Part shown: positions 8,583 through 63,230 of the stretch, piece after piece
Numbering within the stretch: position 1 is the stretch's first letter
How the letters are laid out: the number at the start of each line of letters is the position of its first letter
NCBI GenBank assembly: GCA_013152475.1
Contig: JAADGH010000162.1
Span: 45,994-109,993, forward strand
Length of the DNA: 64,000 nt
Origin: Planctomycetota bacterium
Lineage (GTDB): Bacteria; Planctomycetota; Brocadiia; JAADGH01
Direction of reading: 5' to 3'
The notes under the pieces: generated by a model
What the model was told of the DNA's origin: nothing
What the model saw: only the letters and a program-made list of their open reading frames with translations
The model's database searches: none
Position numbers and translations under genes: made by a program

Positions 8583-8720
8583 TTAGTCATTGCTCCCATC
8601 GCGGTCTGGAGTGCCGCTACCGTGTGATGCGCCTGAATATAGGCCATGCTGAGCGAGAACATCCAATCTTTTTCATCGGCCATGTGACAGGCATCTGTAT
8701 CCGCGCCGCGCCGATCACCG

Positions 8721-9686
8721 TCATCCCGTGCGCGCCAATTCCTTCGGTTCTGCGCTGCAAACTGGCTTCGCGGCCGAAAGCCTGATGCTGGCATTAAGTG
8801 TTAGGGGGAGCAGCCTATCCAGTAGCCTGTGATCCAGCCATTTAAGAGAGCGATAGATTTTCTCCTCAACCGCTCGCCCTATCCTCGGCCTCAGGAGGAG
8901 AGTAATCCACACACCCACGGTAGACCGAAACAACGCCGAAGCAAAGTCGGCGGTTTCAAGTCGGATCTTGTCAAAGCCGGCCTCACGCACGCATCGCATG
9001 AGCTCCCCCGGATGAAAACAATAGATGTCCGGTGGACGCCTCTTTGCCATCTGTCTTGTACTCGACAACTCCCTGCAAAAAATGGCGCGGATCGCATCGT
9101 GCACGACCACGGGAATTAGTTTGACCGCTCCTTGAACAACGTTGAAAAATTCTGTGGCCTCTCCACTAACCAGCAATCGTCCCCCAGGCGCCAGTACACG
9201 CAGGATCTCCTTGGAGGCTCTCCAGGGGCTTGCCAAATGGTGGAAAACAGCGTTAGCCATAACGGTGTCAAAAGAACTGCCTCTGAAGGGAAGCATGGAA
9301 GTATCGGCTTGCACAAGAGGTATCTTCATGTCCGAAGGGCCTCCAAGCGAAGGGATTTCCTTGAGCATTTCTCTTGATATGTCTTGCGCGACTGGAAACG
9401 TGGTTTTGTCCGCCGCAGCCGCGGCCCAGATCATGGCGCCAGACCCTGCGCCCGTGTCAAGGACTCGACCGAGATTGACAACCGGTCCTCCCGTATGCTT
9501 CTCGATCACCCTCAACACATCTGCGACCATCTGACGGTCGAAACCCAGACTCCAGCGATCATTGTAGCGCAGAGATTCGACCTCGTCATGAAAGGCCTCG
9601 TTCACCACCCTTATCTGGTGAGAATCCGACCTCCGCGCCACGTCACGTCGAAACGTATACCGCTCGCAAAATGTTCTCGGACGCAT
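8721..9686 (-). CDS. class I SAM-dependent methyltransferase
   Basis: VLDTGAGSGAM (motif I), QADTSMLPFRGSSFDTVMANAVFHHL, LRVLAPGGRLLV. ATG 9686. Confidence 0.85.
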   Translation of the reverse strand: MRPRTFCERYTFRRDVARRSDSHQIRVVNEAFHDEVESLRYNDRWSLGFDRQMVADVLRVIEKHTGGPVVNLGRVLDTGAGSGAMIWAAAAADKTTFPVAQDISREMLKEIPSLGGPSDMKIPLVQADTSMLPFRGSSFDTVMANAVFHHLASPWRASKEILRVLAPGGRLLVSGEATEFFNVVQGAVKLIPVVVHDAIRAIFCRELSSTRQMAKRRPPDIYCFHPGELMRCVREAGFDKIRLETADFASALFRSTVGVWITLLLRPRIGRAVEEKIYRSLKWLDHRLLDRLLPLTLNASIRLSAAKPVCSAEPKELARTG

Positions 9687-9729
9687 TGGCCCGCCTCCTG
9701 TCAGCCGAAGGGAAGTCGGCGGAAATCAG

Positions 9730-10578
9730 TCAACGCACATGCCGCTTCAGGCTATCAGAAATTCTCCCGAAAGAAAAAGACGAACACAGAGCTCGAAGCT
9801 TGGGTTTGGTTGTGTGAATGTTGAGGTAATGACAGACCCGATTCTTCAGGCTCACGGATATCCGCGGCTGATGTTCATCCAGCTCCCAGGGATGAAAGGA
9901 CATTGTTGCCGGCGCCCCCCGTGAGTTGATCTTGCGCACGGCGGATTTGATGAACGCGAGAGGCAGCAATCGCAGATAGCCGCCCCTGCCGATGGGAGCG
10001 TTGATGCCAAACGCGGTTATGGAGGCAAGCGGGTATTCAAGGATCCTCTGCCCATTCGCACATTCAACAGGATAGGGCATGCAGTCGCCGCCCCCCCTGC
10101 TGCGCCTGCAGGGCCTGGGGGAAAAGACGCTCGAATCGTAGCGATGCCCCACCTCGGCAAGTATGTCGTACGCAGCAAACGGAGCGTTGACGATGGAATA
10201 GGTCGGCGCGCGATAGCCTATGACCTCGCTACCTGTAATGTCCTCCAGCAAGAGCTTTGCCGTTCTCACATCCTCTCTGAATTCCTTTTGGGTTTGTTCG
10301 GAAACCAGCCGGTGCACATAGCCATGCGAGCCGATCTCGTGACCTCGCGCCTTTATCTCGCGCACAAGGCCGGGGCGTTTTCGCGCTATCCACCCGAGGA
10401 CAAAGAACGTGGCATGCGTTCGGGATTCTTCCAAGAGGTCAAGCGCCGTGTGCACGCTTTTGGCGATGCGAAGCGGACGCTCATCCCAGCTATCCGGGCC
10501 GATAGCATTCCGAAACCGGGATACCTGAAAGTAGTCTTCGACATCGACCGTTAGAATGTTTACAGGTTCCACCGTCAT
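9730..10578 (-). CDS. polysaccharide deacetylase (NodB fold), PEP-CTERM/XrtA-locus-type subfamily
   Basis: NILTVDVEDYFQVS..., THATFFVLGWIA, GHEIGSHGYVH, IGYRAPTYSI, HPWELDEHQP match my recollection of the PEP-CTERM-locus deacetylase family. Its ATG 10578 overlaps the upstream stop as ATGA. Confidence 0.85.
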   Translation of the reverse strand: MTVEPVNILTVDVEDYFQVSRFRNAIGPDSWDERPLRIAKSVHTALDLLEESRTHATFFVLGWIARKRPGLVREIKARGHEIGSHGYVHRLVSEQTQKEFREDVRTAKLLLEDITGSEVIGYRAPTYSIVNAPFAAYDILAEVGHRYDSSVFSPRPCRRSRGGGDCMPYPVECANGQRILEYPLASITAFGINAPIGRGGYLRLLPLAFIKSAVRKINSRGAPATMSFHPWELDEHQPRISVSLKNRVCHYLNIHTTKPKLRALCSSFSFGRISDSLKRHVR

Positions 10579-11720
10579 GGGTTCCGAAGGAGCCTTCGAT
10601 ACAGGTCGGCGATCCTCTCTGCCCGGACGTCCGGGTGATATCGGACCACGTCCCGCCTTGCCCGCTGCGCGAGGGCTTGTGCCTTCTTGGGGTTAGATAC
10701 CATCTCGATCACGGCATCCGCCAGCGCATCCGGATTTCGGGGAGGCACGAGCAGAGCACTCCGACCATGCGTCACCATATACGGGACCTCACCCACGATC
10801 GTGGACACGATGGGCGTGTCCGACGCCATCGCTTCGAGGATGGCATTCGGCATCGCTTCGCTCCAGGAGGGAAGCACCAGCACGTCCAACGCCGAAAGAA
10901 GCTCCGGCACATCAGCGCGATGGCCGAGAAGCCTGACATGGTTTTCGAGTCTGCGGTCCCGTATCATGGCGGTCAGCTCCTCCTCGAGTTGTCCCTCCCC
11001 CGCGAGAATGGCCTTCACGTCGCTCCGACGAGACACAACCCTCGTCATGGCCTGGACGAACTCGCGCTGGCCTTTCTCCGGACTCAGCCTGCCAAAAACG
11101 CCCACCAACGTGTCATCCTTCGATGCACCGAAATTGCGCCGGAGCTCCTGCACATCGCCGGTACGGACGTACAAGGCCGGGTCTACGGCGTTCGGGATGA
11201 CGGAGATCCTTGACGGCGGAATGCCGAACCGCCGGAACTCTGGCACGATTGTCCGGGTGACGGCGACGACATGGTCCGGGAACCTGAGGAGCACGTTGTC
11301 AAGGGCGTTGTAGGCCCTGATCTTTATGTTCTGATACGTGCGGCCGTGGAAGAAAGCAATCCATTTGAAGGGAATGTTGAGCATGCTCAGCGCGAAGCAG
11401 ATTGTGTTCGCCTTGGGGCCGTGGGATTGAATGATATGGGCTCCCGTCCGGCGGAAGAGCCTTGCGACGTCCCGTATCGGCCGCGGGTCAAAACGGAATG
11501 CTTCATATAGCAAGGTGACCGGGCGGCCTCGCTTCCGCAGCGCATCAACAAAATCGTTGGTCGTCTCCCCGCGCCGGACGAACGTCGCGACGTGGGTCTG
11601 GACCCCAAAACAAGACTCCCTTTCGAGAAACTCAAGGATGTTCTTCCCCGGTCCGCCCACGCGGTCCGTGGAAACGATGCAGATCACCCTTATCTCAGTA
11701 TCTCGCTTCACCGCAGACAC
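10575..11720 (-). CDS. glycosyltransferase family 4 (GT-B)
   Basis: C-terminal EX7E-type motif LVLPSWSEAMPNAILEAMASDTPIVSTIVGEVPYMV. First codon at 11720 is GTG. Confidence 0.9.
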   Translation of the reverse strand: MSAVKRDTEIRVICIVSTDRVGGPGKNILEFLERESCFGVQTHVATFVRRGETTNDFVDALRKRGRPVTLLYEAFRFDPRPIRDVARLFRRTGAHIIQSHGPKANTICFALSMLNIPFKWIAFFHGRTYQNIKIRAYNALDNVLLRFPDHVVAVTRTIVPEFRRFGIPPSRISVIPNAVDPALYVRTGDVQELRRNFGASKDDTLVGVFGRLSPEKGQREFVQAMTRVVSRRSDVKAILAGEGQLEEELTAMIRDRRLENHVRLLGHRADVPELLSALDVLVLPSWSEAMPNAILEAMASDTPIVSTIVGEVPYMVTHGRSALLVPPRNPDALADAVIEMVSNPKKAQALAQRARRDVVRYHPDVRAERIADLYRRLLRNP

Positions 11721-11739
11721 ACGACCGTCGGAGATTTAT

Positions 11740-12867
11740 TCATTTTCTGCCGCCAAATACCAGCTCGCGATAGAGTTTTGCGTATTCGTTCACAATTCGC
11801 TTTAGGCTGTACTCTTCTTCGGCTTTCCTGCGCCCCGCCAAGGCGAGCGAACGAGCGATACGTGGATGCTCATACAGGTGAAGCAGAGCGGCAGAAAGGG
11901 CGTCCGAATCGTGCGGCGGAACCAGGATGCCGTTCTTGCCGTTCTCCACGGCTTCATTGGTCCCGGGGACGTCCGTTGCGACGATGGTTTTCCCTGCGGC
12001 CATCGCCTCCAGGATGCTCACAGGCATTCCCTCGCAGAGCGAACAGAGGCAATACACGTCCAGCACCCGCATGATCTGAGGGACATCGTGCCGGATTCCC
12101 AAAAAGTGCGCCCGGCCGCCAAGCTCCAGTTCATCCGCCAAGCGCTGCCATTTCTCGAAGCATTCGCCTCCTCCCACCAGAACCAGATGTGCATCGGGTG
12201 CGCCATCCAGAACCTTTCTGAACGCCCGCAACAACATATCCTGCCCCTTCTCCGGTCGAAGGTTCCCCACGCAGCCGACCACGAAATCGTTCGGGCTCAA
12301 GCCCAAGCGGCTGCGCGCCTCCCGCACGCTCAATTTCACCTGGAATCGCGGCAAGTCGACGGCGTTGTAGATGACTCGCATCTCCCGGGAAGCGGGGGCA
12401 TGCTGCAGGTAGTCCTGACGCACATTTTCCGACACGCTGACCAGCGCGTCAACGCGGGGCAAGACCCACCGCAAGAGCTTTGCTTGTTTGGGCCGAGCAT
12501 ACACGCCAAGCAGGCATTGGTTTGTATGGATCAGGGAGGTATCCGGAAGCATCCGCGTTGCGAAAAAACAATAGCTCACCGCGCCATAGTCGTGCGTGTG
12601 GACGACGTCCGCCCGACATTCGACGATAAGCCGCCGCAGCCTTGGGATCAGCGAAATATCGATTCCTTTTCGCTTTTTCATGTCATGGAAGGGCATGCCC
12701 GCCTCGGCGTATTCTCTGCGCATGGCGCCACTGCCGTCCAACGCGCAAGCAATGACGTTGAAGAGTTTCCTATCGAGACTCGTGGCCAGTGCGAAAGCGG
12801 TCCGCTCAGAGCCTCCCGTCCCGCTCGTTTGGTTAACCTGAACTATGTTGAGCTTGCGATCTTCCAA
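11740..12867 (-). CDS. glycosyltransferase family 4 (GT-B)
   Basis: GGSERTAF near the N-terminus; CLCSLCEGMPVSILEAMAAGKTIVATDVPGTNEAVENGKNGILVPP. First codon at 12867 is TTG, so the start is uncertain. Confidence 0.9.
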   Translation of the reverse strand: MEDRKLNIVQVNQTSGTGGSERTAFALATSLDRKLFNVIACALDGSGAMRREYAEAGMPFHDMKKRKGIDISLIPRLRRLIVECRADVVHTHDYGAVSYCFFATRMLPDTSLIHTNQCLLGVYARPKQAKLLRWVLPRVDALVSVSENVRQDYLQHAPASREMRVIYNAVDLPRFQVKLSVREARSRLGLSPNDFVVGCVGNLRPEKGQDMLLRAFRKVLDGAPDAHLVLVGGGECFEKWQRLADELELGGRAHFLGIRHDVPQIMRVLDVYCLCSLCEGMPVSILEAMAAGKTIVATDVPGTNEAVENGKNGILVPPHDSDALSAALLHLYEHPRIARSLALAGRRKAEEEYSLKRIVNEYAKLYRELVFGGRK

Positions 12868-12936: not shown

Positions 12937-14394
12937 TCAAAGCACAGGTTCACGCGGCGCGATGAGATCTCGGAGCACCGTGCGTTCGCTCACGGCCAAA
13001 ATACCTGAAAAGGCCAATAGAATAAGTAGCTTTAATGCAATATCGTTTATCATTCGATCCGACTGCAGCAAACTCGATAGCGCAAAACAGCCTATTGCCC
13101 CGAGAGCAACGCAAAACATTTGGCAGTATTCGAAGGGGATGACGTATTCCCAATGCGCAACAATACAGGTGGCGACCATCAGGTGCAGGAATCCCACAAG
13201 CAACGCAGTAGCCGCCCCCATAATCCCATAAGGGGGGATCAGAATGACGTCCAGCACGATCTCGATGCCAATTGCGCTCAGGGTGATCCAGGACACCGCG
13301 TCCGTGCGCTGTCTCAGCAGGAGTCCTGTGCGGAAAATCCGGCTCACTGCGAGAAAGGTGTAGGCTACGGCAAGCACTGGAATTGCTGATGACGCGGCAT
13401 AGTATTTGGGATCCGCTACCAGGCGGAGGGCCAGTGGGGCGAGCATCGCCACGGCGAGAGCACAGGCCGCCAGCACTTTCAGATATGCCGTGGCGATCCG
13501 AGCATATATGCGTCGGGCATCCGATTCCCGTGCCACGCGGAACAGGTGCGCGCTCCATATCTGTTCGAACGGACCTCCGATGAACACGTTCACAAGGGCC
13601 CCAAATTTATGCCCCAGTGAATATGTGCCAACCAGCCCGAGGCTCCCCAGGAATCGGAGCATGGGCCGGTCGATGTAATGCATGAGAAACTCCGTGATAT
13701 TGCCCGGCAGCATCGGCATACCGTAGCGGAGCATCTGGCGAAACAGCGGCGGCGAAAATCCGATTCCTTTCCGACTCAGAACCCAGAAGGCAAGGGGCAA
13801 TGCAATGCAGCCCTGGGAGATGACGAAGCTGAGCCAGACCCCCGTAATGCCGTAGCCTTTCCCCGCGATGAAATAGATGTTCAGACTGATGGTCGCTATG
13901 AATTCCGCCAGAGAGATGAGTACAAAAACCAAGGATTTGCGCAAGGCCCGAATGTAGGTCAGACAGCACGTGGCAATGACTTCGAACACATTGTAGCACG
14001 CCATGAGGACGAACAGGTGGTAGCTGTCTGTCCTGCCGGTGATGAGTAGCGACAGGAGCCGGGACAGGGGAAGCACCACAGCCAATGCGAGAATCCCCAT
14101 TACCGTGACCGAGATCAGGGCCGTGGACACCAGGAGATTTTCTTTCGCGGTTCCATGGTGTTCGGCGAAGAACTTGAGGAGGGAATAGCTCATGTTGAGC
14201 GAGATGAAAAACACGAGGAACGCGCTGGTTAAGGCTACCAAGTGGGATATGCCGTATTCTGCGGGGGCCAGATAGTGGGTGTAGAGCGGGATGAGGAAAA
14301 ACCCGATGCCCTTTCGCGCCACGATGCCGAGGCCGTACACTACGGTATGTCGGGCAACCGTTTTGACGTTCTTTTGTATGCCGTTTGACGTCAT
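12937..14394 (-). CDS. Wzx-type oligosaccharide flippase (MOP superfamily polysaccharide biosynthesis protein)
   Basis: ORF 12937..14502, preferred ATG 14394 (MTSNGIQKNVKTVARHTVVYGLGIVARKGIGFFLIPLYTHYLAPAEYG). Many predicted TM helices throughout. Confidence 0.8.
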   Translation of the reverse strand: MTSNGIQKNVKTVARHTVVYGLGIVARKGIGFFLIPLYTHYLAPAEYGISHLVALTSAFLVFFISLNMSYSLLKFFAEHHGTAKENLLVSTALISVTVMGILALAVVLPLSRLLSLLITGRTDSYHLFVLMACYNVFEVIATCCLTYIRALRKSLVFVLISLAEFIATISLNIYFIAGKGYGITGVWLSFVISQGCIALPLAFWVLSRKGIGFSPPLFRQMLRYGMPMLPGNITEFLMHYIDRPMLRFLGSLGLVGTYSLGHKFGALVNVFIGGPFEQIWSAHLFRVARESDARRIYARIATAYLKVLAACALAVAMLAPLALRLVADPKYYAASSAIPVLAVAYTFLAVSRIFRTGLLLRQRTDAVSWITLSAIGIEIVLDVILIPPYGIMGAATALLVGFLHLMVATCIVAHWEYVIPFEYCQMFCVALGAIGCFALSSLLQSDRMINDIALKLLILLAFSGILAVSERTVLRDLIAPREPVL

Positions 14395-14408
14395 GTCTAT
14401 AGAGGCAA

Positions 14409-15605
14409 TCAGGTGAACATGCCGCAGCACCGGGAACAGATGGGAAACGATCCTCTCCGGCTCAGTTCTGCGCGGAACTTCCTCATCCTTGGGCCGTTCC
14501 ATATGGTCAGGAGGGCCTGGCGTTTGATGTTTCCGATCACGTAATCCGGGTGGTCGGGGCAGGGAACAACATCGCCGTTCGGGCGGATGTCAACCAGCAT
14601 CCACGGAAACAGGCAGTACCGGCGGCCGATAAGCTTGGACGGTTTTTCGTAGTATTCAGCCATTTGGTCCAGTGGCAGGCTTGGAGAGAACTTGATGTAG
14701 AGGTCCCCCGTGTCCATTTCATACAGAGAGCGGATCTGGTCCCGCAGGCGGTCCAGATCGAATCCGTGCTCTTCTCTTGCAAAGCCCTGCCATGAGGTGC
14801 AGCGGCAGTCAAAAGCCCTCTGGTACAGACGATCCGTTGCCCTTCCCAAGGCCTCGGTGGTGAACCAGCCCAGGGGGAAAATGAGGACGTCTGCGCCGAA
14901 ATCCTGAACCAGTTCGGCCACCTCGGTCAGGTGCGTATAGTTGTCGGGGGTGATCGTGCAGACGACCTTCAAAAGCGAACGAGAATGTCTCAGACGCCGT
15001 CTCTCACGCACGATTCTTCGCACCCCGCGGGACAGGCGGTCGAAGGCGCCGGGTACGCGGCAGATGCTGTCGTGTATCTCATGGGGGCCGAGAATGGACA
15101 CGTTGACGCTGTTTACATTCGAGCGAACGATCTCTTCCGCAAATCGCTCCAAAAGAGTGCCGTTCGTTTCGACGACGCAAAACAGTCTCCTATCCATGAT
15201 CAGGGCCAGAAGTTGCGCGAACTGCGGGTGCAGCAACGGCTCGCCTCCCCACATACACACATCGGGGCGAGTCGGATATGCCGCAATCTCGTCAATGACC
15301 CCGCGGAGCAGATCAAACTCAAGAGTATGAGGGGCTCTCGTGCGATCGGTCCCGGTGTAGATCCCCGTTTCGCCATGCTGCCCACACATCTTGCACCGCA
15401 GGTTGCACCGGGACGTTAGGTTAAGCGATACGGTGAACGGCGAGCGAGAGAATGGGCAGGACTTGTGCGCCAGCCTCCGGAGAAACATCCAACGGCTCAG
15501 CTCCTTTCGGAGCTTACGCATCGCATAATCGGGCTGCTCTATTCCTAATCGGACAAGCTTTCCAAGGGCCCCCCTGGTGAAACTGAACGCTCTCGTGATG
15601 ACCAC
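14409..15605 (-). CDS. radical SAM enzyme with SPASM/twitch-like Cys-rich C-terminal domain
   Basis: LNLTSRCNLRCKMCGQ (CX3CX2C), MWGGEPLLHP, C-terminal YCLFPW..PNGDVVPCPDH..GNI...WNG...FPICSRCCG. First codon at 15605 is GTG; the alternative ATG is 15521. Confidence 0.85.
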   Translation of the reverse strand: MVITRAFSFTRGALGKLVRLGIEQPDYAMRKLRKELSRWMFLRRLAHKSCPFSRSPFTVSLNLTSRCNLRCKMCGQHGETGIYTGTDRTRAPHTLEFDLLRGVIDEIAAYPTRPDVCMWGGEPLLHPQFAQLLALIMDRRLFCVVETNGTLLERFAEEIVRSNVNSVNVSILGPHEIHDSICRVPGAFDRLSRGVRRIVRERRRLRHSRSLLKVVCTITPDNYTHLTEVAELVQDFGADVLIFPLGWFTTEALGRATDRLYQRAFDCRCTSWQGFAREEHGFDLDRLRDQIRSLYEMDTGDLYIKFSPSLPLDQMAEYYEKPSKLIGRRYCLFPWMLVDIRPNGDVVPCPDHPDYVIGNIKRQALLTIWNGPRMRKFRAELSRRGSFPICSRCCGMFT

Positions 15606-15661
15606 AAAAAATCTCCGAAGGACACGTCCTTACATGCAGGCCGCCGATACGCGACGCCAGG

Positions 15662-16555
15662 CTATTTGCCTACTCTTCCTTCGATCAACACGCGCCCCGC
15701 GCAGAAGTGCGCAATGGGCCTGCAAAGGGCCAAGAGAGCCCGATCCATCTTGACAAGGGGAACAATGCTGTCTGGAAACAGGCGATTGGACAGCAACTTG
15801 AAATAGCAAAAACGAGCGCACCGAAGATTCTCCACGATGTATGCCATATCGTGCTGCGTCAGTTTCGTCTCGTCCGGGCTGCTGATCCGCTCCTTCTCCC
15901 TGAAAACAATATCGGCCACTCGCGGGTAGATGACTTCTTCCACGAATCTGGAATGCCGGATGCTCTGCGTTGCGGTGTGAGAGTAAGGCTCGTCGATCAC
16001 AACGAGGGCCCCAGGCCTCGATACACGACATATCTCGCCAAACGCCTGCGGGATATCGCAGTGGTGGAGTGCTGCAGCCACAACGACGCAATCAAAGGAC
16101 TCATCCTCATACTCCATACTCTCTGCTGGCATCACCTTAAAATGGGGGTGTACCCCCAGCATCGCGGCTGTGCCTTTCGCATGGGCGATCAAATCCGGGC
16201 TGAGGTCGAAGGCGTGGACCTCGGCGCCCATTCTGCACAGGCAGAACGCATCCGTACCTCCCCCACACCCAACGACAAGGACCCTCCTGTTCCGAATGTT
16301 CTCCCGCAAGAGGATCGTGTACATTGCCCACCGATGATCCCACCCGCGTCTTTTCTTGCTGTCTACAACATCATAGAAACCCTTTGGACATTCCCTCGGC
16401 TTGTCTCGGTAACGCTCCATATAGGCCTTGAAGTATTCACGTTCACGTCGCTGCCTATCTGTTAACTCGTACTTCTTCACCTTCTGCGAAGTCTCCGTTG
16501 GTGTTTCATGGCTGGCATCGAAATATCGACAAGGGGGCTGCGCCCTATAAACCAT
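15662..16555 (-). CDS. class I SAM-dependent methyltransferase
   Basis: VLVVGCGGGTDAF, AFDLSPDLI, DESFDCVVVAAALHHC, GALVVIDEP. ATG 16555 (the track ORF starts at TTG 16561). Overlaps the upstream stop by 11 nt. Confidence 0.85.
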   Translation of the reverse strand: MVYRAQPPCRYFDASHETPTETSQKVKKYELTDRQRREREYFKAYMERYRDKPRECPKGFYDVVDSKKRRGWDHRWAMYTILLRENIRNRRVLVVGCGGGTDAFCLCRMGAEVHAFDLSPDLIAHAKGTAAMLGVHPHFKVMPAESMEYEDESFDCVVVAAALHHCDIPQAFGEICRVSRPGALVVIDEPYSHTATQSIRHSRFVEEVIYPRVADIVFREKERISSPDETKLTQHDMAYIVENLRCARFCYFKLLSNRLFPDSIVPLVKMDRALLALCRPIAHFCAGRVLIEGRVGK

Positions 16556-18062
16556 AGACAAAGCGGGAATACAGCAGTCTTAGACGCAGTGCCATCGTAT
16601 CAACGATCCGCCTCAGGAGTTTCACTGGGTTGGTCCGAAGCAAGTGCATGCTTTCCTTGAGCCAGCGGCGAACGTTGAAGAGAGACAACCGCGTGTTGCG
16701 CTCGTACGCCGCCTTGAAGAGTTCCTGCTGCAAGGATCTAAACCGTTCCGGGGGGATATTGACAGCGAACCACGACCGCGAACTGGCATGGGAGAGTTTT
16801 GACCAATCGGGCCTGTCGCCGATCAGGCCCAGCCTCTTAACTTGCTCATGCATTTCGCTGCCGGGATAGGGAACGTAGGTATTGACGTAAACCAGGTCGT
16901 GTTTCAGCTCGCGAACCAGACGGATCGTCTTGCGAATGTCTTCCTCGGTTTCGTCTGGCGTCCCCACAAGAAATGTCGTAATCACCTGCATTCCCTCGCG
17001 ACGGACCAGTGCGATGGCCTTGCGCACCTTGTCTATGTCAACTTGCTTTTTCATGATTCGGAGCATACGCTCGCTCCCTGATTCGGCCCCGATCAGAACG
17101 GCCGTACAGCCTGACAGATGAAGCATCCTTGCCGAGGTGGCGTCGATGGCATCCGCCCTTGAAGAACACAGCCATTCGAATCCAAGTCCGGTGGCCCGGA
17201 CAGCCTTGCAGAAATGCAGCAGGCGGGACCGTTTCAAGGTAAGTGTGTCGTCCACGAAGTGAAACCTGCGGCACCCGAAGTCGCGCCCCAATTGCCGAAT
17301 CTCTGAGATGATATTGTCTACAGAACGGAATCGCACCTTTGTACCCCAGAGGCCTCTGGAATCGCAGAAGGTACACTGGTATGGGCAGCCGCGCGATCCG
17401 ATAATGGTGCCCATGTGGGTGTCTGAATAGAGGTCGGGAAAGAGCCTCAAGTCTTTGGCAGGGAACGGTAGTGAGTCGAGGTCCTTGATATAGGGTCTCA
17501 GGGGGTTGACGATCACCCGTCGGCCCTTCCTCAGGCAGATCCCCTCGATTGTACTGAGCGAGCGAGCGTCTTCGAGCGCGTCCACCAGCTCGACAATCGT
17601 GACCTCACCTTCGCCCCGCACCACAAAATCTATGTTCTTGTCGTCCATGACCTCTTCGGGACAGGCATTGGGGTGAGGACCACCGGCAACGACCACACAG
17701 TCAGGAAGCTCCTCTTTGGCCAGATGCGCCACGATCTTCGCGGAGGGAAGGGCCGGGCTCTGAATGCTGATGCCCACCATGTCCGGCGTCTGCTGTTTCA
17801 TGACGCTTCTGATCTCATCCCACACCGGATGGGCGCGATCGGCCAATGCCTGCAGGTACCGCTCCTGCCCGGAGGTCCTCTGGGCGTCCAACCAGGGGCG
17901 CTCAAACGTTGGCGTATCGGGTCCGATATCCGCGTTATAGATCCGGACCTGGTGATTCGCGTCTCTCAGAACGGCCCCAAGGTAGCCGAGCGACAACGGG
18001 AAAAAGTCGTTCTTGACACGCATCAGCCTTTCGAACGGAGGGAATACGAGCAGGACCTTCAC
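16545..18062 (-). CDS. B12-binding-domain radical SAM enzyme (class B, methyltransferase-like)
   Basis: N-terminal KVLLVFPP...PLSLGYLGAVLRDANHQVRIYN (cobalamin-binding Rossmann-like domain) followed by GSRGCPYQCTFCDS (CX3CX2C). GTG start 18062 with AAAGAGG ~8 nt upstream. Confidence 0.85.
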   Translation of the reverse strand: MKVLLVFPPFERLMRVKNDFFPLSLGYLGAVLRDANHQVRIYNADIGPDTPTFERPWLDAQRTSGQERYLQALADRAHPVWDEIRSVMKQQTPDMVGISIQSPALPSAKIVAHLAKEELPDCVVVAGGPHPNACPEEVMDDKNIDFVVRGEGEVTIVELVDALEDARSLSTIEGICLRKGRRVIVNPLRPYIKDLDSLPFPAKDLRLFPDLYSDTHMGTIIGSRGCPYQCTFCDSRGLWGTKVRFRSVDNIISEIRQLGRDFGCRRFHFVDDTLTLKRSRLLHFCKAVRATGLGFEWLCSSRADAIDATSARMLHLSGCTAVLIGAESGSERMLRIMKKQVDIDKVRKAIALVRREGMQVITTFLVGTPDETEEDIRKTIRLVRELKHDLVYVNTYVPYPGSEMHEQVKRLGLIGDRPDWSKLSHASSRSWFAVNIPPERFRSLQQELFKAAYERNTRLSLFNVRRWLKESMHLLRTNPVKLLRRIVDTMALRLRLLYSRFVYGL

Positions 18063-18064
18063 GT

Positions 18065-18724
18065 CTATGCCTCTTTCTTTGCAGATTTCTTGCCGCCGTT
18101 CGCCGGATTCTCCCCCTCAGGGCCGTCGGCTGGTGACGCATGCCGGCGCCATCTCTTGCCGATGCTGCGCGCAGGGATGCCGCCAACGATTGCATACGGC
18201 GGGATATCCCTTGTGACCACAGCGCCCGCGCCGATGATCGCACCGTCGCCGATCTTGACACCCGCCACAATCACGCTATTGGAGCCTACCCACACGTCAT
18301 TTCCGATAGCGATATCTTTCTCAATCCAGGGCTGAACATTCATCGGCATGTCAAGATCGGTGTCATGGTTTGATGAGAAGATACGCGCGCCGGGACCCAT
18401 CAACACATTATCGCCAATGACAATGCGAGACTTGGGGCTGGCCCAGACACAGCAGTATTGGTTCACATGAGAGTTTTCCCCCAGCCAGATATTCTCGCCG
18501 CATCGGAAGGATGCGGTGGGATGGATCCTCACATTCCGCCCCTGGTGCATCCTGGCCCGCGGGGCCACGTGGTCGTGGATGTAGTACCCGAACATCGAGA
18601 GATAAGAGCGGATGGCCGTGGGAGACAGCATGTACAAGATCACCTCGATGATGTCCCGCAGTGTTGGCCGATTGCGTGGTTGGTGTGCCTTATTCACTTT
18701 TTGTGCCGCGTCCCTCCACGCCAT
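18065..18724 (-). CDS. hexapeptide-repeat (LbH) sugar O-acetyltransferase
   Basis: IGDNVLMGPGARIFSSNHDTD...IAIGNDVWVGSNSVIVAGVKIGDGAIIGAGAVVTRDIPPYAIVGGIPAR. Start uncertain: ATG 18724, or GTG/TTG/ATG at 18640-18631. Lys-rich C-terminal tail. Confidence 0.8.
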   Translation of the reverse strand: MAWRDAAQKVNKAHQPRNRPTLRDIIEVILYMLSPTAIRSYLSMFGYYIHDHVAPRARMHQGRNVRIHPTASFRCGENIWLGENSHVNQYCCVWASPKSRIVIGDNVLMGPGARIFSSNHDTDLDMPMNVQPWIEKDIAIGNDVWVGSNSVIVAGVKIGDGAIIGAGAVVTRDIPPYAIVGGIPARSIGKRWRRHASPADGPEGENPANGGKKSAKKEA

Positions 18725-19730
18725 TGTACCCGCAGTGAACATCGATGTCGGACATATCAGCCTTCCTGAACCATTCCCGCACTGTGTCGACGGTTTGTGG
18801 ATTATCGTACACCGGGGACAGCATGTCAAATGTGTCGAGGGTCGCCCACTCGGTCAGCAGTTCTTCCGGCAGGTCGCATATCCCATAGTAATCGGCAATG
18901 AGGAGTCTCCAGGCCAGACCCCGTCCGCAGGGCAGCCGGCGGAGAAGCCGCGCCACGGGCCACATGGATCTGATGTATGCCTCACACCAGGCGTACAACC
19001 TTTCCGCTGGTATTCTCCTCGTGAACAACCGGACCCAGTACTTGGTCATGAGTGCCTGTCGGATCGCTCCCCGTCGGCGATAGACATCGACGACCAGGCT
19101 GCCTCCGTTTTTGATGTATGGGGGCAGTGCCATGAACGATTCTTCCGGGCTGGGGGTGTGCTGGAGCACGCCAAAGCAAAACAGCTTGTCGAAGAAGTTC
19201 TCCCTGAATGGCATGCGCCGCAAATCGGCCTGCACAATAAGGACGTTCTCTCTGTCTCCGTTGGAAGCGTAGTTTGCGTCGACGGCACTGCTGTAGTCGA
19301 CCGAAATGACCATGGCGCCGGTTGAGGCCGCCTGCTCTGTGAACCTGCCCGATCCACTTCCCACCTCAAGGACAAGCTGTCCGTCCAGCCGACGCGGCCA
19401 CTTGGTTTCTTCGAAGAACCGCGTCTCGGATATGTTCACTCCGGTATAGCTGTCGTACTGTGTTCGTGCGTGCTTGTTCCACTCCAGACCGAAATTGCTG
19501 GCATAGTTCTCTGCGGGAACGAAACGGGGGATATGCCGAACGATTTCATATGTCTTCTGACACGTTATACACTGCAGACGCCCTGTTTCAATAGATGACC
19601 CGGTCGCAACGTGTCCTCCGAGTATATCGAGACCGCCCTTGCAGCGCGGACAGACCAAATACCTCAAGTGTTCTTCACGCACGGCTGCCTTCCCGCGAAC
19701 ATGCTGAGCGCGCCCGATCCCTTTTCGCAT
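18690..19730 (-). CDS. SAM-dependent methyltransferase with N-terminal Trm112-like zinc ribbon
   Basis: LRYLVCPRCKGGL...LQCITCQKTYEIVRHIPRF followed by VLEVGSGSGRFT, ADLRRMPFRENFFDKLFCFGVLQH, GGSLVVDVY. Start is ATG 19730 or GTG 19682, the latter overlapping the upstream stop by 8 nt. Confidence 0.8.
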   Translation of the reverse strand: MRKGIGRAQHVRGKAAVREEHLRYLVCPRCKGGLDILGGHVATGSSIETGRLQCITCQKTYEIVRHIPRFVPAENYASNFGLEWNKHARTQYDSYTGVNISETRFFEETKWPRRLDGQLVLEVGSGSGRFTEQAASTGAMVISVDYSSAVDANYASNGDRENVLIVQADLRRMPFRENFFDKLFCFGVLQHTPSPEESFMALPPYIKNGGSLVVDVYRRRGAIRQALMTKYWVRLFTRRIPAERLYAWCEAYIRSMWPVARLLRRLPCGRGLAWRLLIADYYGICDLPEELLTEWATLDTFDMLSPVYDNPQTVDTVREWFRKADMSDIDVHCGYNGVEGRGTKSE

Positions 19731-20868
19731 GGAGAACGCGCAGAACCTCGCGGCTGAAGGTTTCGGCGCGCGCCCGCCACGAATTCTCTCTTGCGAATTG
19801 CTTCCGCTCTTCTCGAAGCGACGGCGAATCTTCCTGAACGGCGCGTTCGATCGCCGAAATAAAGCCCTCGACACTTTCCGCCGTGTGGACGAGCCTGTCT
19901 CCATACCGCAAGACGTCGTGAAGCGGTCGGGAAATGACCGGCAAGCCGCACGCGAGATACTCGAGCAGCTTGGCGGGGTTGACATACTTGGTAAAGGCAT
20001 CCATGGTATATGGGATCAGTCCCACATCAAAGGCGTTCGTGTACTCCGGCACCCTCTCGTACGGCTTCTGGCCAAGGATGAAAATGTTCTCAGGCTTGTC
20101 CGCCCCGAACGCTCCCTGTTCGATGTTGCCGATAAGAACGAAAGAGTAGCCGGACAGCGCCTTTGCCGCGTGCCGGATAAGGTCCATGTCAAGACAGGCA
20201 TGCATCGCGCCCACATAGCCGGCCACGGGTCTCGGTATCTTCTTCATCTCCGGGGGCGCGGGCAGATCAGCCGCCTGGAAGTGGTCCACGTCCACGCCGT
20301 GGGGAAGGTGGATCATCCTGCGCGCCAGCGCTCGCTTCTTGCGCCATAGATTCTCCGACGGCACGAAGCTCACATCGGCCCCGGAGAGGAGCTTTCGTTC
20401 CATTTCCTGCATGAGGACACGATTGACAAATGGCATCTCGACATAGTTGTCCATGTAGCACGCCACCAGCAGGCGATGGGGGACCACATCGGCATACTCG
20501 ATAGCCGTGGGCACGGACATGACAACAATAGGCTTCTGAAACCCCAACGACTGCATTTTCCTCCGAACAAAACCTCCGACAATTCGTTTGTTGAGACCCC
20601 AACATAGCCGAGAGCGATACAGTGGAAGGACCGCCGGCGAAACAGCGACGATCCCGGGGTTTGCGCTGCGAGGCTGGGTGAGAACGTCCAAGATTTTTGT
20701 CATGCCGCGTTTCAGATCGTACCGCGAGAACCGCGGGGTTCGCTTGCCCACCGAGTTGACCCAAAGCACTCGGTTGCTCTCCGCCAGCACCGTTATGATG
20801 CGCTGGACACAGTCCGGGTGTCGGCCGTAGTCCGTTCCGAATACGACAATATCTGCGTCTCTGAGCAC
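19675..20868 (-). CDS. glycosyltransferase, GT-B fold (family 1/4-like, TuaH-like)
   Basis: VAGYVGAMHACLDMDLIRHAA..SFVLIG...FDVGLIPY....VNPAKLLEYLACGLPVIS. GTG start 20868 with GAGG 5-6 nt upstream. Confidence 0.75.
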   Translation of the reverse strand: MLRDADIVVFGTDYGRHPDCVQRIITVLAESNRVLWVNSVGKRTPRFSRYDLKRGMTKILDVLTQPRSANPGIVAVSPAVLPLYRSRLCWGLNKRIVGGFVRRKMQSLGFQKPIVVMSVPTAIEYADVVPHRLLVACYMDNYVEMPFVNRVLMQEMERKLLSGADVSFVPSENLWRKKRALARRMIHLPHGVDVDHFQAADLPAPPEMKKIPRPVAGYVGAMHACLDMDLIRHAAKALSGYSFVLIGNIEQGAFGADKPENIFILGQKPYERVPEYTNAFDVGLIPYTMDAFTKYVNPAKLLEYLACGLPVISRPLHDVLRYGDRLVHTAESVEGFISAIERAVQEDSPSLREERKQFARENSWRARAETFSREVLRVLHAKRDRARSACSREGSRA

Positions 20869-20894
20869 CTTACCTCGCTACACGTTACGGGCCG

Positions 20895-22040
20895 TCACGG
20901 CTGCCTCGCACCCCGCCAGGTGACCCTTTGCCATCCAAACACAAACTTGACGAAGCCGAGAAGAACGGCCAGGTTGATGAAGCAGAAAAAATACGGCATC
21001 TTCAGCGGGCCGCATGGCACACGGACGGCGTCCAGCAGCCATGCCCCAAGACCAACGGTGTAGAAACAAATCTGTGCGGCGAACAAGACGCCGTACGGCG
21101 CGTGGCCAACCAAGAGAGCATTTGTCACCAGTGCGCTCAACAGAAAGAAGGGGCTCGCGTGGCGAAGCCACTTGTGAGAGAACAACTGCCATGCGATTGG
21201 AGACCGCACCGGATTCAGAAGGCTGCGGAAACGCCACAACGTCTGAAATGTGCCTGCGGCAATCCGAGATTTTTGGCGAAGGAGTTGGCGGACATCCCTT
21301 AGGGACTCTTCGTAAGCGATGGAATCGCTCGCAAAAACCACTCGTGAACCGTTCTGTATCACCTGCAAGATGATTGCGAAATCCTCAGTAATGCTGTCGG
21401 TCGAAGGAAAAGGATACCGGTCCCGTCGCACCGCGAATATGGCCCCGTTCGCTGCCGTGCAGGAGTGGATGGCGCTCTCTTTCGCCTTCAGGAAATCTTC
21501 GTACCGACGGTGCAGGATATTGCCTCCTCCAATGGCCTTCCCTCGACTTCGCATTTCAAGTCTGCCACACACCGCCCCGACGGCATCCTCGGCGAAGTGC
21601 TTCACGAGTTCCCGAACGGCAGCCGGCTCAAAGGAGGTGTTTGCATCCGTGAAGACGACAATAGGCGACTTGATCTCTCGAATCGTCTTGTTCAGGACCG
21701 ACACCTTTCCTTCGCGTTCCGGATAGGAAAAAAGGCGGACGCGCGGGTCATCGAAACTCTCGACCTCCTCATCCGTTCCATCGGAGCATCCGTCGGAGCC
21801 GACGACGATCTCCAGTCGGTCTGCTGGATAGTCGGCATCAAGGGCATTCTGGATCCTGCCGCGGATTACGGACTCCTCGTTATACGCAGCGATGAGGATG
21901 CTGACCTTCGGTGGGTCCATCGCTTTGCCGGGAAGGTCCTCGCGCCGGCGGAAAGAGGCCACGATACCGAGCAACATGGGATAGCCGGCATAGGTGTACA
22001 GGAGCACGGAAACCGATAACCAAAAAAACAGTTCAACCAT
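20895..22040 (-). CDS. membrane-associated glycosyltransferase family 2 (GT-A)
   Basis: N-terminal TM, then VSILIAAYNEESVI, VVGSDGCSDGT, FTDANT, C-terminal TM helices. ATG 22040. Confidence 0.9.
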   Translation of the reverse strand: MVELFFWLSVSVLLYTYAGYPMLLGIVASFRRREDLPGKAMDPPKVSILIAAYNEESVIRGRIQNALDADYPADRLEIVVGSDGCSDGTDEEVESFDDPRVRLFSYPEREGKVSVLNKTIREIKSPIVVFTDANTSFEPAAVRELVKHFAEDAVGAVCGRLEMRSRGKAIGGGNILHRRYEDFLKAKESAIHSCTAANGAIFAVRRDRYPFPSTDSITEDFAIILQVIQNGSRVVFASDSIAYEESLRDVRQLLRQKSRIAAGTFQTLWRFRSLLNPVRSPIAWQLFSHKWLRHASPFFLLSALVTNALLVGHAPYGVLFAAQICFYTVGLGAWLLDAVRVPCGPLKMPYFFCFINLAVLLGFVKFVFGWQRVTWRGARQP

Positions 22041-22205
22041 GTGGGCCCGCCAGCATCGTCCTGTCGGTGTACAGAAAAGGCGAACCAGAGCCAGCGCAAG
22101 CGGACTCTGGAGGAGAGCAATGGAGCGCCTGCCGAATGCGCTCCTTCCACTGACGCCTGGCTTCAGCCAACCTGCGACGCCGCTTTTCCAACAGCGCTCC
22201 CTGAC

Positions 22206-23615
22206 TCAAGACCCGGCGGCTCCCTTCTCTCCGATATGCCCTACGGAGCGACCGGAAGCTCTCCTCGATCTGGAAGGTGGACCGTAACACACCGCGACGG
22301 AGAGAACTATCAGCACCTCAAAGGGCACACTAAGCCCCGGCACGAACATCACCCCGATGCAGGAACCGAAAAGGGCCAGCAGCAGCGCCTGTGCCAGACA
22401 TTCTCTCCCGCCAAAAACGCCGGTCTTTTCTCCTGAACGTACAACGCGGAATAGGCCCTGGAGCGTACATAAATGCAAAGCCAATATGCTGAGGATACCG
22501 GCCAATCCTGTCTCTGCCATCACCATGAGATACTTGTTATGGCAGTAAATCCACTGCCTTCCCCACGGAGACTCATACCTGAAGTCCTTCCGACGGTAAT
22601 CAAGATAGGCCCGAGCAAAACAACCCGCCCCAACACCTGTCAAAGGATAGTCGCAGAACATCCTCAAGGCGCCCCTCATCAGGGCGACTCTGTACCGTGC
22701 TTCGGGCAGGTCCCCCAACTCCAACATGCTCATCTGCCTTGAGAGCCGGCCCGTTGGCAGAAGCAGCGCGACGGCAAGCGCCGCGACGATCCCCACGGTA
22801 ACGGCTCTGTGGATGAGGCGCCGAGGGGAGAGAAGGACCCAAACGATGATCATCGCGATCAGCGCCAACAACGTGCCGCGTGAACCGGTCCTGATTACAC
22901 CGAAACCACAGACGCCAAGTATCCCGACAAGCAGGAATCTGACCAAGGGTCTTCGGTAGGATGACAGCATCCCCAGGGCAATCCCGACGGACAGGACCAA
23001 CACGATGCCAAAGTCACTGTTGCCGGCGGTGTCAAGCGTGATTCCCCCTATCCGAGCGCGATTCGTTTGTGTCACCAGGGCCCAAACGCAGGCGGTGGTG
23101 TAAGAGGCCATGCAAAGCCATAGGGAGCGGTGAACCAGCTTGAGTGATCGAACGCAGCTTATGCACACCAGGAACACGATCAGTTCTCTGCACTCCGTGA
23201 TAAATATCCTGAACGAGTAGCCCGGATAATAGGAAAATGGCACGGAGAGAGCGATTGCGCCGACCAGCCCCACACTTGCATAGAACTGGGGAACCCGGTA
23301 TCGCCATCGGTAGCCCGAGGAAAGCAGCCCGGCCAACAACGCCAACTTGGCCATCATGGCCAGGCGTGCACCGCGAACTATCGGCCAAATTTCCTGCGGA
23401 CGGAAGGCAATAACAAACACAAGCAAGAGCCAGGGCACGGTCACGAGGAAGCTCTCTCGAAAACCTGCCGCGTGATTCCGGGCCTGCGGGGAGGCGTGTA
23501 GTCTGCCTGCGCCATTGGTGATGGCTTCGGTGGCTTGTGCTATTCTCTCTGCCGAAGTCATTCCCTTTCCGTAGGCGTTACGTTCCCCGTTGCAGCGACA
23601 TTGTCGTCGGCTCAT
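22206..23615 (-). CDS. O-antigen ligase/Wzy-like polymerase family membrane protein
   Basis: Multi-TM protein with the Wzy_C-type motif VIRTGSRGTLLALIAMIIVWVL and a periplasmic loop. ATG 23615 (alternative 23561). Confidence 0.75.
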   Translation of the reverse strand: MSRRQCRCNGERNAYGKGMTSAERIAQATEAITNGAGRLHASPQARNHAAGFRESFLVTVPWLLLVFVIAFRPQEIWPIVRGARLAMMAKLALLAGLLSSGYRWRYRVPQFYASVGLVGAIALSVPFSYYPGYSFRIFITECRELIVFLVCISCVRSLKLVHRSLWLCMASYTTACVWALVTQTNRARIGGITLDTAGNSDFGIVLVLSVGIALGMLSSYRRPLVRFLLVGILGVCGFGVIRTGSRGTLLALIAMIIVWVLLSPRRLIHRAVTVGIVAALAVALLLPTGRLSRQMSMLELGDLPEARYRVALMRGALRMFCDYPLTGVGAGCFARAYLDYRRKDFRYESPWGRQWIYCHNKYLMVMAETGLAGILSILALHLCTLQGLFRVVRSGEKTGVFGGRECLAQALLLALFGSCIGVMFVPGLSVPFEVLIVLSVAVCYGPPSRSRRASGRSVGHIGEKGAAGS

Positions 23616-25379: not shown

Positions 25380-25452
25380 CGTCTTTCAGGGGAGTCCAGA
25401 ATGCTCCTTGTTTGCCACGAAATTCGTGACGGGCTTCCGGCCCTGTCGGCCC

Positions 25453-26166: not shown

Positions 26167-26175
26167 GGGTCTCCC

Positions 26176-26544: not shown

Positions 26545-26550
26545 AGAGGG

Positions 26551-33025: not shown

Positions 33026-33076
33026 GTGTCTTTCTCAAGCTCCAATCGCGCCCCCCCCCGCGCATAAGGTACTCCC

Positions 33077-63220: not shown

Positions 63221-63230
63221 CACAGACAAC

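Follow-up and report, generated by a model that had tools for sequence, protein, structure and literature searches.

A radical SAM-rich tailoring block in a Wzx/Wzy-type exopolysaccharide locus of an uncultured planctomycete as a probable source of modified repeat-unit sugars

In a 64-kb stretch of DNA from an uncultured Planctomycetota bacterium (the window), five consecutive minus-strand genes at positions 14409-19730 form a block that includes two radical S-adenosylmethionine (SAM) enzymes, one with a twitch domain and one with a B12-binding domain, within a polysaccharide locus. Our analysis, which included Pfam and NCBIfam profile scans of the open reading frames (ORFs) of the window, makes it reasonably probable that the block provides cytoplasmic tailoring enzymes for a Wzx/Wzy-dependent, XrtA-type-like exopolysaccharide (EPS) pathway and that the radical SAM enzymes act on a repeat-unit sugar. 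Glycan tailoring by these enzymes appears well supported by genomic context, synteny and gene fusions; the specific chemistry that we propose would be C-methylation, oxidation or deoxygenation. The kind of locus, a Wzx/Wzy EPS locus, is known; the new part is the presence of radical SAM tailoring enzymes from uncharacterised clades.

The block described in our first-pass annotation, five same-strand genes with the motifs CNLRCKMC and CPYQCTFC in the two radical SAM proteins, was confirmed by ORF calls and Pfam with all its coordinates, as were the flippase and glycosyltransferases on its flanks and the extra methyltransferases at 8721-9686 and 25453-26166 (Table 1). The region has ORFs on the minus strand only. 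Read from the stop codon of the twitch enzyme at 14409 to the ATG of the zinc-ribbon methyltransferase at 19730, the order is twitch radical SAM enzyme, class I methyltransferase, B12-binding radical SAM enzyme, hexapeptide acyltransferase and zinc-ribbon methyltransferase. Neighbouring genes overlap or are separated by gaps of at most 56 nt, and the start of the class I methyltransferase gene overlaps the stop of the B12 enzyme gene. The block is kept gene for gene, at 75-86% amino acid identity, in the Planctomycetota metagenome-assembled genome GCA_040755855.1, and given this conservation the arrangement is not due to chance. By tblastn, nearly all genes of the locus were found in that genome at 65-86% amino acid identity on a syntenic contig, and both radical SAM proteins have their nearest relatives there, at 80% and 85% identity. 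The orthologues in the syntenic relative L001 are 85% identical for the twitch enzyme, 75-78% for the class I methyltransferase and 84% for the zinc-ribbon methyltransferase (330 aa).

In GCA_040755855.1 the conservation of the two radical SAM genes equals that of the glycosyltransferases and of the flippase, and their synteny is kept, so that we regard them as intact, under constraint and inherited with the locus. Hardly any credence can be given to the idea that their co-location is incidental or that they are decaying genes that add nothing to the polysaccharide. Nothing specific speaks for it beyond the richness of anaerobe genomes in radical SAM paralogues, which can occur in arrays (as in L040), and against it stand intact reading frames with every cluster cysteine present in both proteins, 80-85% identity to the syntenic orthologues and confident structure models.

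The block is part of an unbroken minus-strand array that runs from 29986 down to 6867, an 18-gene, tightly packed Wzx/Wzy/Wzc operon. Starting from 29986, the genes encode a Wzc-like protein, an ArnC/PgfS-like GT2 glycosyltransferase, a 237-aa methyltransferase, PMT_2, Wzy_C, a GT2 and a TuaH-like GT1 enzyme and then the block; past it follow Wzx, two GT4 enzymes, an XrtA-system deacetylase, a methyltransferase and a fusion of ATP-grasp with a low-molecular-weight phosphatase. The recognisable parts of a Wzx/Wzy locus comprise PF01943, PF04932, two Wzc-like proteins, a Wza-like protein and at least six glycosyltransferases. The deacetylase exceeded the cutoff of its XrtA-system model (TIGR03006, 304 bits; cutoff, 276), and most other XrtA-family models stayed under theirs (TIGR03027 export protein, 167 versus 180; likewise stp2, stp3, the kinase and the chain-length protein). 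No exosortase or PEP-CTERM protein was recognised among the scanned ORFs of the window, and no Bac_transf priming enzyme was found in it by profile, a WecA/MraY-type enzyme not having been specifically searched for. Going by its predicted gene content, the locus is an EPS operon of the Wzx/Wzy/Wzc kind that shows XrtA-type affinities and is unusually rich in tailoring genes.

Glycan surroundings were also found for the relatives of the two enzymes. Of 11 Pfam-annotated contigs with the closest homologues (35-43% identity), 10 have the gene in a glycan locus. Among the B12 homologues, P0002 is in a clear glycan locus, P0005 is accompanied by Wzy, Wzx, NeuB, Capsule_synth and GT4, P0006 by glycosyltransferases, DegT and an epimerase, and P0014 by a MurJ/MatE-type flippase, GT1, a methyltransferase, GT2, an epimerase, a heptose-like pathway and Bac_transf; P0010 has a methyltransferase and a nucleotidyltransferase as its only such neighbours. 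The twitch homologue P0122 is in an O-antigen or EPS-like locus, and P0123 (42% identity) is in an O-antigen-like locus with DegT, WbqC, PIG-L, GT4, an XrtA-type deacetylase and a further B12-binding radical SAM enzyme.

In wider scans, the B12 alignment was run against 185,579 species genomes and the twitch alignment against metagenomes; each scan returned 80 loci. The B12 family ranges over many anaerobic bacterial phyla and over archaea (Bathyarchaeota, Asgard archaea, Methanobrevibacter and DPANN lineages). Single-sequence phmmer searches on the 160 loci were too insensitive for Wzx, Wzy and PMT_2, and iterated profiles built from the window proteins performed better; membrane proteins are still under-detected, and the glycan-context counts are therefore lower bounds. 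Greedy ORF calling in L101 and L112 produced some wrong-strand ORFs, which had no Pfam matches. When loci with at least 12 kb of flank were binned by their bit score to the window protein, at least two glycan genes were present in 6 of 9 B12 loci at 280 bits or more, in 7 of 14 at 230-280 bits and in 13 of 28 at 190-230 bits; for the twitch loci the corresponding counts were 5 of 8 at 180 bits or more, 2 of 7 at 100-180 bits and 4 of 6 below 100 bits. Within two genes on each side, Pfam identified GT1 in 9/117 cases, GT2 in 5/117 and further radical SAM proteins in 9/117 for the B12 family, and GT1 in 5/119, methyltransferases in 5/119 and DegT in 4/119 for the twitch family. Glycosyltransferases make up about 1% of genes. 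Because the counts exceed this figure, they indicate an enrichment of glycosyltransferases among the neighbours, with that general figure standing in for a matched background. A twitch and a B12-binding radical SAM gene lie within 10 kb of each other in roughly a quarter of the loci, to which we give no weight because anaerobe genomes are rich in radical SAM genes and a matched background is lacking.

Two further features of these loci were noted in passing. A recurrent cassette of DegT, twitch radical SAM enzyme, GT4, WbqC and a PIG-L/LmbE deacetylase was seen in L005, L100, L105, L113 and L120; its DegT, WbqC and PIG-L genes are not in the window, and its pairing of a DegT aminotransferase with a radical SAM enzyme recalls DesI/DesII. 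Dense arrays with up to eleven B12/SPASM radical SAM paralogues per 20 kb occur in L040 (Bathyarchaeota, 22 kb) and also in L031, L035, L055 and L170.

The strongest single argument for glycan tailoring comes from gene fusions, which suggest that both families share a substrate with enzymes of glycan assembly and methylation. When 1.84 billion representative proteins were searched exhaustively with HMMER, the twitch enzyme matched 574 clusters at E <=1e-30. Six of the best 150 matches are proteins of 780-835 aa that contain the whole radical SAM part at 32-39% identity, and five of these six carry an N-terminal GT2 domain (P0241, P0253, P0260, P0265 and P0270; 781-835 aa), with 85 bits for the GT2 domain of P0241. 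The GT2 domains are of a soluble type and not clearly ArnC-like, and we found no description of GT2::twitch radical SAM fusions in the literature searched. For the B12 family, two fusions to a class I methyltransferase were found (L046:9950-12349, 800 aa, and L002:16982-19084, 700 aa), both inside glycosyltransferase-rich loci. These mirror the overlap of the B12 enzyme gene with the Methyltransf_11 gene in the window, the methyltransferase domains being generically similar only.

Some of the close twitch homologues raise the question of a different partner for the enzyme. The segment at 23652..27585 is possibly a lipid-carrier side-branch module, and its GT2 scored 215 bits with the ArnC-type model, under cutoff. 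Together with this segment's ArnC-like GT2, 237-aa methyltransferase and PMT_2 protein, the twitch enzyme might work on a polyprenyl-phosphate monosaccharide that the GT-C enzyme then passes to the polymer or to a different acceptor at the outward-facing side of the membrane, in a side-branch route like those of ArnC/ArnT or Gtr. Such a route would fit four twitch homologues (38-40% identity) that lie one to three genes from PMT_2, three of them (P0128, P0143 and P0146) in cassettes of GT2, a small methyltransferase and a PMT_2 GT-C enzyme and one (P0136) with a PMT_2 gene and a methyltransferase close by. The domain set of the window segment recurs beside twitch homologues in L007, L009, L171 and L172, and the cassette methyltransferases best match the 237-aa methyltransferase. 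However, these matches reach only 30-36% over ~110 residues, BLASTP gave only weak matches or none between the PMT_2 proteins of the cassettes and that of the window, and the cassette GT2 proteins are not closest to the ArnC-like GT2. In the window the twitch gene is 8 kb away from the ArnC-like/PMT_2 module and adjoins the B12 enzyme and Wzx, and the fused GT2 domains described above are not of a clear ArnC type. We consider this route distinctly unlikely. One conserved orthologous module of twitch enzyme, ArnC-like GT2, 237-aa methyltransferase and PMT_2 was rejected as a candidate: the domains recur, but BLASTP orthology is weak or absent.

The twitch enzyme scored 68 bits with PF04055 (cutoff, 29.5) and 59 bits with the SPASM domain PF13186. 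In a 22-member family alignment, C67/C71/C74 of the cluster motif are invariant together with C331, C349, C390 and C393, so that the C-terminal part has only four invariant cysteines, spaced CX17C...CX2C and with G344-X4 ahead of C349. A full SPASM domain has the seven-cysteine motif CX9-15GX4C...CX2CX5CX3C...C and two auxiliary clusters, and a twitch domain is a truncated SPASM domain with three or four cysteines and a single auxiliary [4Fe-4S] cluster, as in enzymes of the BtrN, MoaA and SkfB types. The CX5CX3C segment is absent in the alignment, the four-cysteine pattern is that of the twitch subclass, and SkfB, BlsE and MoaA are among the fold matches. The combined SPASM/twitch label that had been given to this Cys-rich C terminus can thus be narrowed to twitch and its full-SPASM half dropped, with a single-auxiliary-cluster layout predicted from the alignment. 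This CX17C...CXXC layout may resemble that of BtrN; BtrN was not among the PDB sequence matches at E <=1e-3. An enzyme of the anSME type would have a full SPASM domain, two clusters and a cognate sulfatase, whereas here four cysteines are seen and no sulfatase profile matched in the window. None of the curated NCBIfam families reached its cutoff, the best being a tungsten-cofactor maturase (94 versus 380) and N_Twi_rSAM (82 versus 170). The best PDB sequence match was BlsE (1.6e-7), followed by a 4Fe-4S protein, SkfB and anSME (E 8.5e-4). The AlphaFold2 model (predicted local distance difference test [pLDDT] score, 86.7) has a radical SAM fold, and in Foldseek searches against the PDB its best matches were DesII (2.7e-14), SkfB (5.5e-14) and BlsE (1.1e-13; TM scores of up to 0.72), followed by SuiB and anSME. 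As far as sequence and model tell, the enzyme resembles the sugar-acting DesII and BlsE and the peptide-acting SkfB, SuiB and anSME equally.

The B12 enzyme scored 76.7 bits with PF02310 (cutoff, 32.1; residues 15-159) and 82.6 bits with PF04055 (cutoff, 29.5). We prefer the 505-aa form over the 492-aa database call because GTG 18062 is preceded by AAGAGG and the homologue alignment begins there. Family-wide signatures are GGPHP, VRGEGE and RGCP-x-x-C-x-F-C. The CX3CX2C motif, PF04055 and the radical SAM fold place both enzymes in the radical SAM superfamily, and the B12-binding domain ahead of the radical SAM core gives the B12 enzyme the domain order of class B. Curated NCBIfam families were again below cutoff without exception (BchE, 194.8 versus 481; ApyD, 184 versus 750; HpnJ, 172 versus 578; PhpK, 163 versus 600; AprD4, 131.5 versus 500). 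For the two enzymes together, the curated families that stayed under cutoff also included anSME, NirJ, AhbD and HpnH. AprD4 was the best PDB sequence match (6e-34; with the family profile, 6.7e-52), ahead of MgmA (1.9e-27), and with the AlphaFold2 model (pLDDT, 90.1; radical SAM fold) Foldseek ranked MgmA (1e-23) and AprD4 (2e-23; TM scores of 0.67-0.74) first, then TsrM, OxsB, CysS and TokK (to 1e-17). The enzyme thus appears equally like the C-methylase MgmA and the sugar diol-dehydratase AprD4 in both sequence and modelled fold. The alignment of the family profile with AprD4 is limited to the radical SAM core (positions 188-423), and that with the cobalamin-binding structures (MgmA, OxsB, TokK, TsrM and CysS) starts at about position 81-124. 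This reach into the cobalamin domain of known binders favours a functional cobalamin domain, and the B12 enzyme has likely retained a cobalamin-type N-terminal domain.

These likenesses bear on whether the B12 enzyme is a methylase at all. It could instead perform an AprD4-like dehydration of a 1,2-diol or amino alcohol, or another cobalamin-dependent sugar rearrangement, with all methyl groups coming from the class I methyltransferases. AprD4 is both its best PDB sequence match and a co-top fold match, and its highest NCBIfam scores are to the cyclase BchE and to HpnJ, neither of which is a methylase. On the other hand, the likeness to AprD4 covers the core only, the N-terminal domain aligns with the cobalamin-binding members, the PF02310 match is strong, MgmA is an equally good fold match, and no AprD3-like reductase partner was seen by Pfam in the block. 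We consider a non-methylase unlikely, and carbon methylation by the B12 enzyme is mildly favoured if the enzyme acts on a glycan.

Several observations weigh against glycan tailoring or its proposed chemistry. No characterised enzyme is close to either protein and all curated family scores are far under cutoff; class B itself includes non-methylases (AprD4, BchE, HpnJ and OxsB); and fold searches rank sugar-acting and peptide-acting enzymes equally. The neighbourhood statistics are small-number statistics that have no matched genomic background, and many metagenomic homologues have housekeeping genes right beside them. Both families become heterogeneous at <=30% identity, where unrelated or RiPP (ribosomally synthesised and post-translationally modified peptide) contexts appear. 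A 29.6%-identical homologue of the B12 enzyme is part of a RiPP-like cluster on the Clostridium estertheticum plasmid pDSM14864-244 (L175, 126.8-134.4 kb), together with two small hypothetical genes, a PqqD-family chaperone, an S8 peptidase, a second radical SAM enzyme and an ABC transporter. Stand-alone pairs of a twitch and a distant B12-binding radical SAM gene occur without glycosyltransferase context at L091:9884-12755 and L117:2200-7381; the first of these has an RsmB-like gene on one side and an MFS_2 transporter gene on the other. The neighbourhood survey that the first-pass annotation had called for therefore has a divided outcome, with close homologues in glycan loci and distant ones partly in RiPP-like or housekeeping surroundings. 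The comparison with characterised class B and BtrN/anSME/DesII families is balanced, since neither sequence nor fold searches separated sugar-acting from peptide-acting relatives; judged by the models, fold ranks do not separate methylases from non-methylases or dehydratases either.

Another reading is that the two radical SAM enzymes modify a peptide or protein, for example a RiPP or a secreted or PEP-CTERM-type protein tied to the EPS. RiPP maturases are typically SPASM/twitch or class B radical SAM enzymes, the top fold matches of the twitch enzyme include SkfB, SuiB and anSME, the C. estertheticum homologue is accompanied by a PqqD chaperone, an S8 peptidase and ABC transporters, and the RiPP enzyme ApyD gave the second-best NCBIfam score of the B12 enzyme. 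The block itself does not look like a RiPP locus. There is no intergenic room and no free small ORF for a precursor peptide in 14409-19730, the largest gap being 56 nt, and Pfam scans of the block and its neighbours found no PqqD/RRE, peptidase or ABC exporter domain. Sulfatase matches are absent from the window, the four auxiliary cysteines differ from the set of two-cluster SPASM maturases, and glycosyltransferases are the partners suggested by the closest homologues and by the fusions. A peptide substrate is therefore unlikely for the block enzymes, and we hold peptide or protein modification to be very improbable as an account of the block.

The earlier proposal that the repeat unit carries unusual sugars is upheld as far as the place of the two enzymes in the polysaccharide locus is concerned, on the grounds of packing, synteny, close homologues, fusions and the missing precursor ORF; the chemistry named in it is not established, as no family cutoff was reached. 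For modification of a repeat-unit sugar we propose the following course. Both radical SAM enzymes would act ahead of flipping by Wzx, on the undecaprenyl-linked intermediate or right after glycosyl transfer. We favour this stage because no nucleotide-sugar aminotransferase, dehydratase or epimerase was recognised among the scanned window ORFs and because of the GT2::radical SAM fusions. The B12 enzyme would methylate an unactivated sugar carbon, with methylcobalamin as the methyl donor and a substrate radical as the acceptor, and so give a C-methyl or branched sugar. The twitch enzyme would abstract hydrogen from a sugar carbon, with the auxiliary [4Fe-4S] cluster taking up an electron, and yield a keto-sugar in a BtrN/DesII-type oxidation; the keto-sugar could be final or could go on to epimerisation, deoxygenation or methylation. 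O- or N-methyl groups may come from the three class I methyltransferases in and beside the block, and O-acetyl groups from the hexapeptide transferase. The top NCBIfam matches of the latter are maltose and galactoside O-acetyltransferases, under cutoff; its start is either ATG 18742 or 18724, and its orthologue has 209 aa. The zinc-ribbon methyltransferase matched NF038101 (3.1e-6) and only weakly Trm112p of Pfam.

Table 1. Features of the block and of the surrounding locus in the 64-kb window
Feature	Position	Strand	Evidence
Radical SAM enzyme with C-terminal 4-Cys twitch (truncated SPASM) domain, 398 aa	14409..15605	-	Pfam Radical_SAM 1.5e-18, SPASM 4.7e-16
CNLRCKMC (CX3CX2C cluster motif), residues 67-74 of twitch enzyme	15384..15407	-	Translation; invariant in family alignment
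Class I methyltransferase, ~272-299 aa	15662..16561	-	Pfam Methyltransf_11 3.4e-19
B12-binding (class B) radical SAM enzyme, 505 aa from GTG 18062	16545..18062	-	Pfam B12-binding 1.7e-21, Radical_SAM 4.7e-23
CPYQCTFC (CX3CX2C motif), residues 226-233 of B12 enzyme	17364..17387	-	Translation; C226/C230/C233 invariant in family alignment
Left-handed beta-helix hexapeptide acyltransferase	18065..18742 (ORF to 18829)	-	Pfam Hexapep 3.6e-15
Methyltransferase with N-terminal Trm112-like CxxC...CxxC zinc ribbon	18690..19730 (ORF to 20000)	-	Pfam Methyltransf_11 9.9e-16
Wzx-type flippase, directly downstream of block	12937..14502	-	Pfam PF01943 Polysacc_synt 3.8e-15
GT1-type (TuaH-like) glycosyltransferase (19675-20868), GT2, Wzy_C (PF04932) polymerase/ligase, directly upstream of block	19675..23615	-	Pfam/NCBIfam
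PMT_2 GT-C, 237-aa methyltransferase (25453-26166), ArnC/PgfS-like polyprenyl-phosphate GT2	23652..27585	-	Profiles
Two GT4, XrtA-system polysaccharide deacetylase, methyltransferase (8721-9686)	6867..12867	-	Profiles
ATP-grasp fused to low-molecular-weight phosphotyrosine phosphatase	6867-8582	-	Profiles
Wzc-like co-polymerase/tyrosine kinase pair	27560-29986 and 30803-33025	-	Profiles
NusG paralogue between the two Wzc-like genes	30210-30842	-	Profiles
Segment with the Wzc-like pair and NusG paralogue listed above, EpsL-like outer-membrane protein, Wza-like export protein	27560..36562	-	Profiles
Third radical SAM enzyme, B12-binding, 812 aa, B12 and radical SAM domains at residues ~300-650	42724..45162	-	Pfam
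Phosphohexose mutase, near third radical SAM enzyme	46533-47978	same strand as locus	Profiles

Further genes of the window deserve mention. The third radical SAM enzyme, which lies past a gap at the far end of the EPS export genes, has an N-terminal extension of ~300 aa that has no Pfam match. A fourth radical SAM ORF at 63201-63998 on the plus strand (PF04055, 7.3e-15; twitch-family profile, 89 bits) is cut by the window end. The NusG paralogue is plausibly a dedicated antiterminator of the RfaH/UpxY-like kind for this very long EPS operon. A stand-alone Rce1-like (CPBP/CAAX-type) intramembrane protease domain is encoded at 37094-38020 (+) inside the EPS export region, and a second such domain at 54683-56887 (-) is fused to an ABC-2 permease. 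At the locus border, on the opposite strand, a 587-aa ORF (5028-6791, +) matched GINT1_N (1.9e-45), the N-terminal domain of glucosamine inositolphosphorylceramide transferase, and had no NCBIfam match.

The chemistry of the surface polysaccharides made by anaerobic and uncultured bacteria is almost unexplored. We tentatively suggest, with a little less than even confidence, that a widespread and unrecognised class of glycosyltransferase-coupled radical SAM enzymes in anaerobes tailors such polysaccharides at the lipid-linked stage, giving C-methyl or branched, keto, deoxy or epimerised sugars, with the fusions as the signature of the class. If this is true, radical chemistry so far known only from antibiotic pathways would be at work on surface polysaccharides, and the enzymes would be a new supply of biocatalysts that functionalise C-H bonds of sugars. 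If radical SAM tailoring is routine, the glycan diversity available for phage, immune and lectin recognition would be greater than in the O-antigen and capsule paradigms, which come from aerobes. A demonstrated chemistry would be of added interest because the same enzyme clades are widespread in anaerobes. Experimental handles exist in cultured organisms that carry such genes (Brachyspira hyodysenteriae WA1, Solidesulfovibrio carbinolicus DSM 3852), in natural strains that lack the genes and in the fusions, which name the partner enzyme.

Two plasmids of cultured anaerobes offer precedents. We found no biochemically characterised radical SAM enzyme of an EPS, O-antigen or capsule pathway in the full-text literature searched, which is weak evidence, as most subscription journals lie outside it. 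The 36-kb plasmid pBHWA1 of B. hyodysenteriae WA1 has been described as carrying a run of radical SAM genes amid glycosyltransferases, epimerases and rfb genes, and loss of part of this radical SAM/rfb block correlates with reduced virulence, the published link being a correlation without biochemistry (La et al. 2014, PMC4267127). The plasmid was not among the plasmid tblastn matches listed and was compared directly by accession. It has seven radical SAM/SPASM genes interleaved with glycosyltransferases, epimerases and rfbA-D/rfbF; five of the seven proteins have CX3CX2C together with CX17C...CXXC, and six match the twitch enzyme (phmmer E 9e-10 to 1.5e-17). As in the window, this is a surface-glycan locus of an anaerobe in which the function of the radical SAM enzymes is uncharacterised. 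It differs in the low identity of its proteins, which are distant homologues, in the lack of a B12-binding radical SAM enzyme and in being plasmid-borne, with a dTDP-rhamnose or CDP-sugar context instead of an XrtA-type Wzx/Wzy EPS operon. Plasmid pDCAR1 of S. carbinolicus encodes homologues of the B12 enzyme (E 4e-57 to 5e-32). The genes that flank one of them are for a glycosyltransferase, an acyltransferase and an epimerase; two more are beside a further radical SAM gene and SIS-domain and sugar-kinase genes. The view that radical SAM enzymes are uncommon in EPS and O-antigen loci therefore holds for well-studied model organisms only; in anaerobic bacteria and archaea they recur, a feature that has been noticed but left unexplained, and such loci, as identified from their genes, are uncharacterised rather than rare.

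Among characterised enzymes, the class B members (MgmA, TsrM, TokK and CysS as structures, and the GenK and Fom3 types) share with the B12 enzyme the N-terminal B12-binding Rossmann domain and the CX3CX2C core (fold E 1e-23 to 1e-17), but identity to solved members is ~16-22% and these enzymes belong to antibiotic, cofactor or methyl-coenzyme M reductase (MCR) pathways and not to surface polysaccharide. GenK-type enzymes C-methylate sugar carbons. AprD4 (PDB 6fd2), a radical SAM 1,2-diol dehydratase from the apramycin pathway whose substrate is an aminoglycoside sugar, is the best PDB sequence match, yet the likeness does not extend beyond the core and the window protein has a canonical B12-binding signature. 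DesII (8hzv) and BlsE (7vob) are similarly among the best fold matches of the twitch enzyme, BlsE being also the best sequence match, but at <20% identity, with equal scores for RiPP maturases, and from antibiotic pathways with soluble substrates. The surrounding locus has its counterpart in XrtA/PEP-CTERM and Wzx/Wzy/Wzc EPS loci, with which it shares Wzx, Wzy_C, Wzc-like kinases, a Wza-like exporter, GT4 and GT2 enzymes and the XrtA-system deacetylase; compared with these, the tailoring density of the window, two to three radical SAM enzymes and five methyltransferases, is unusual.

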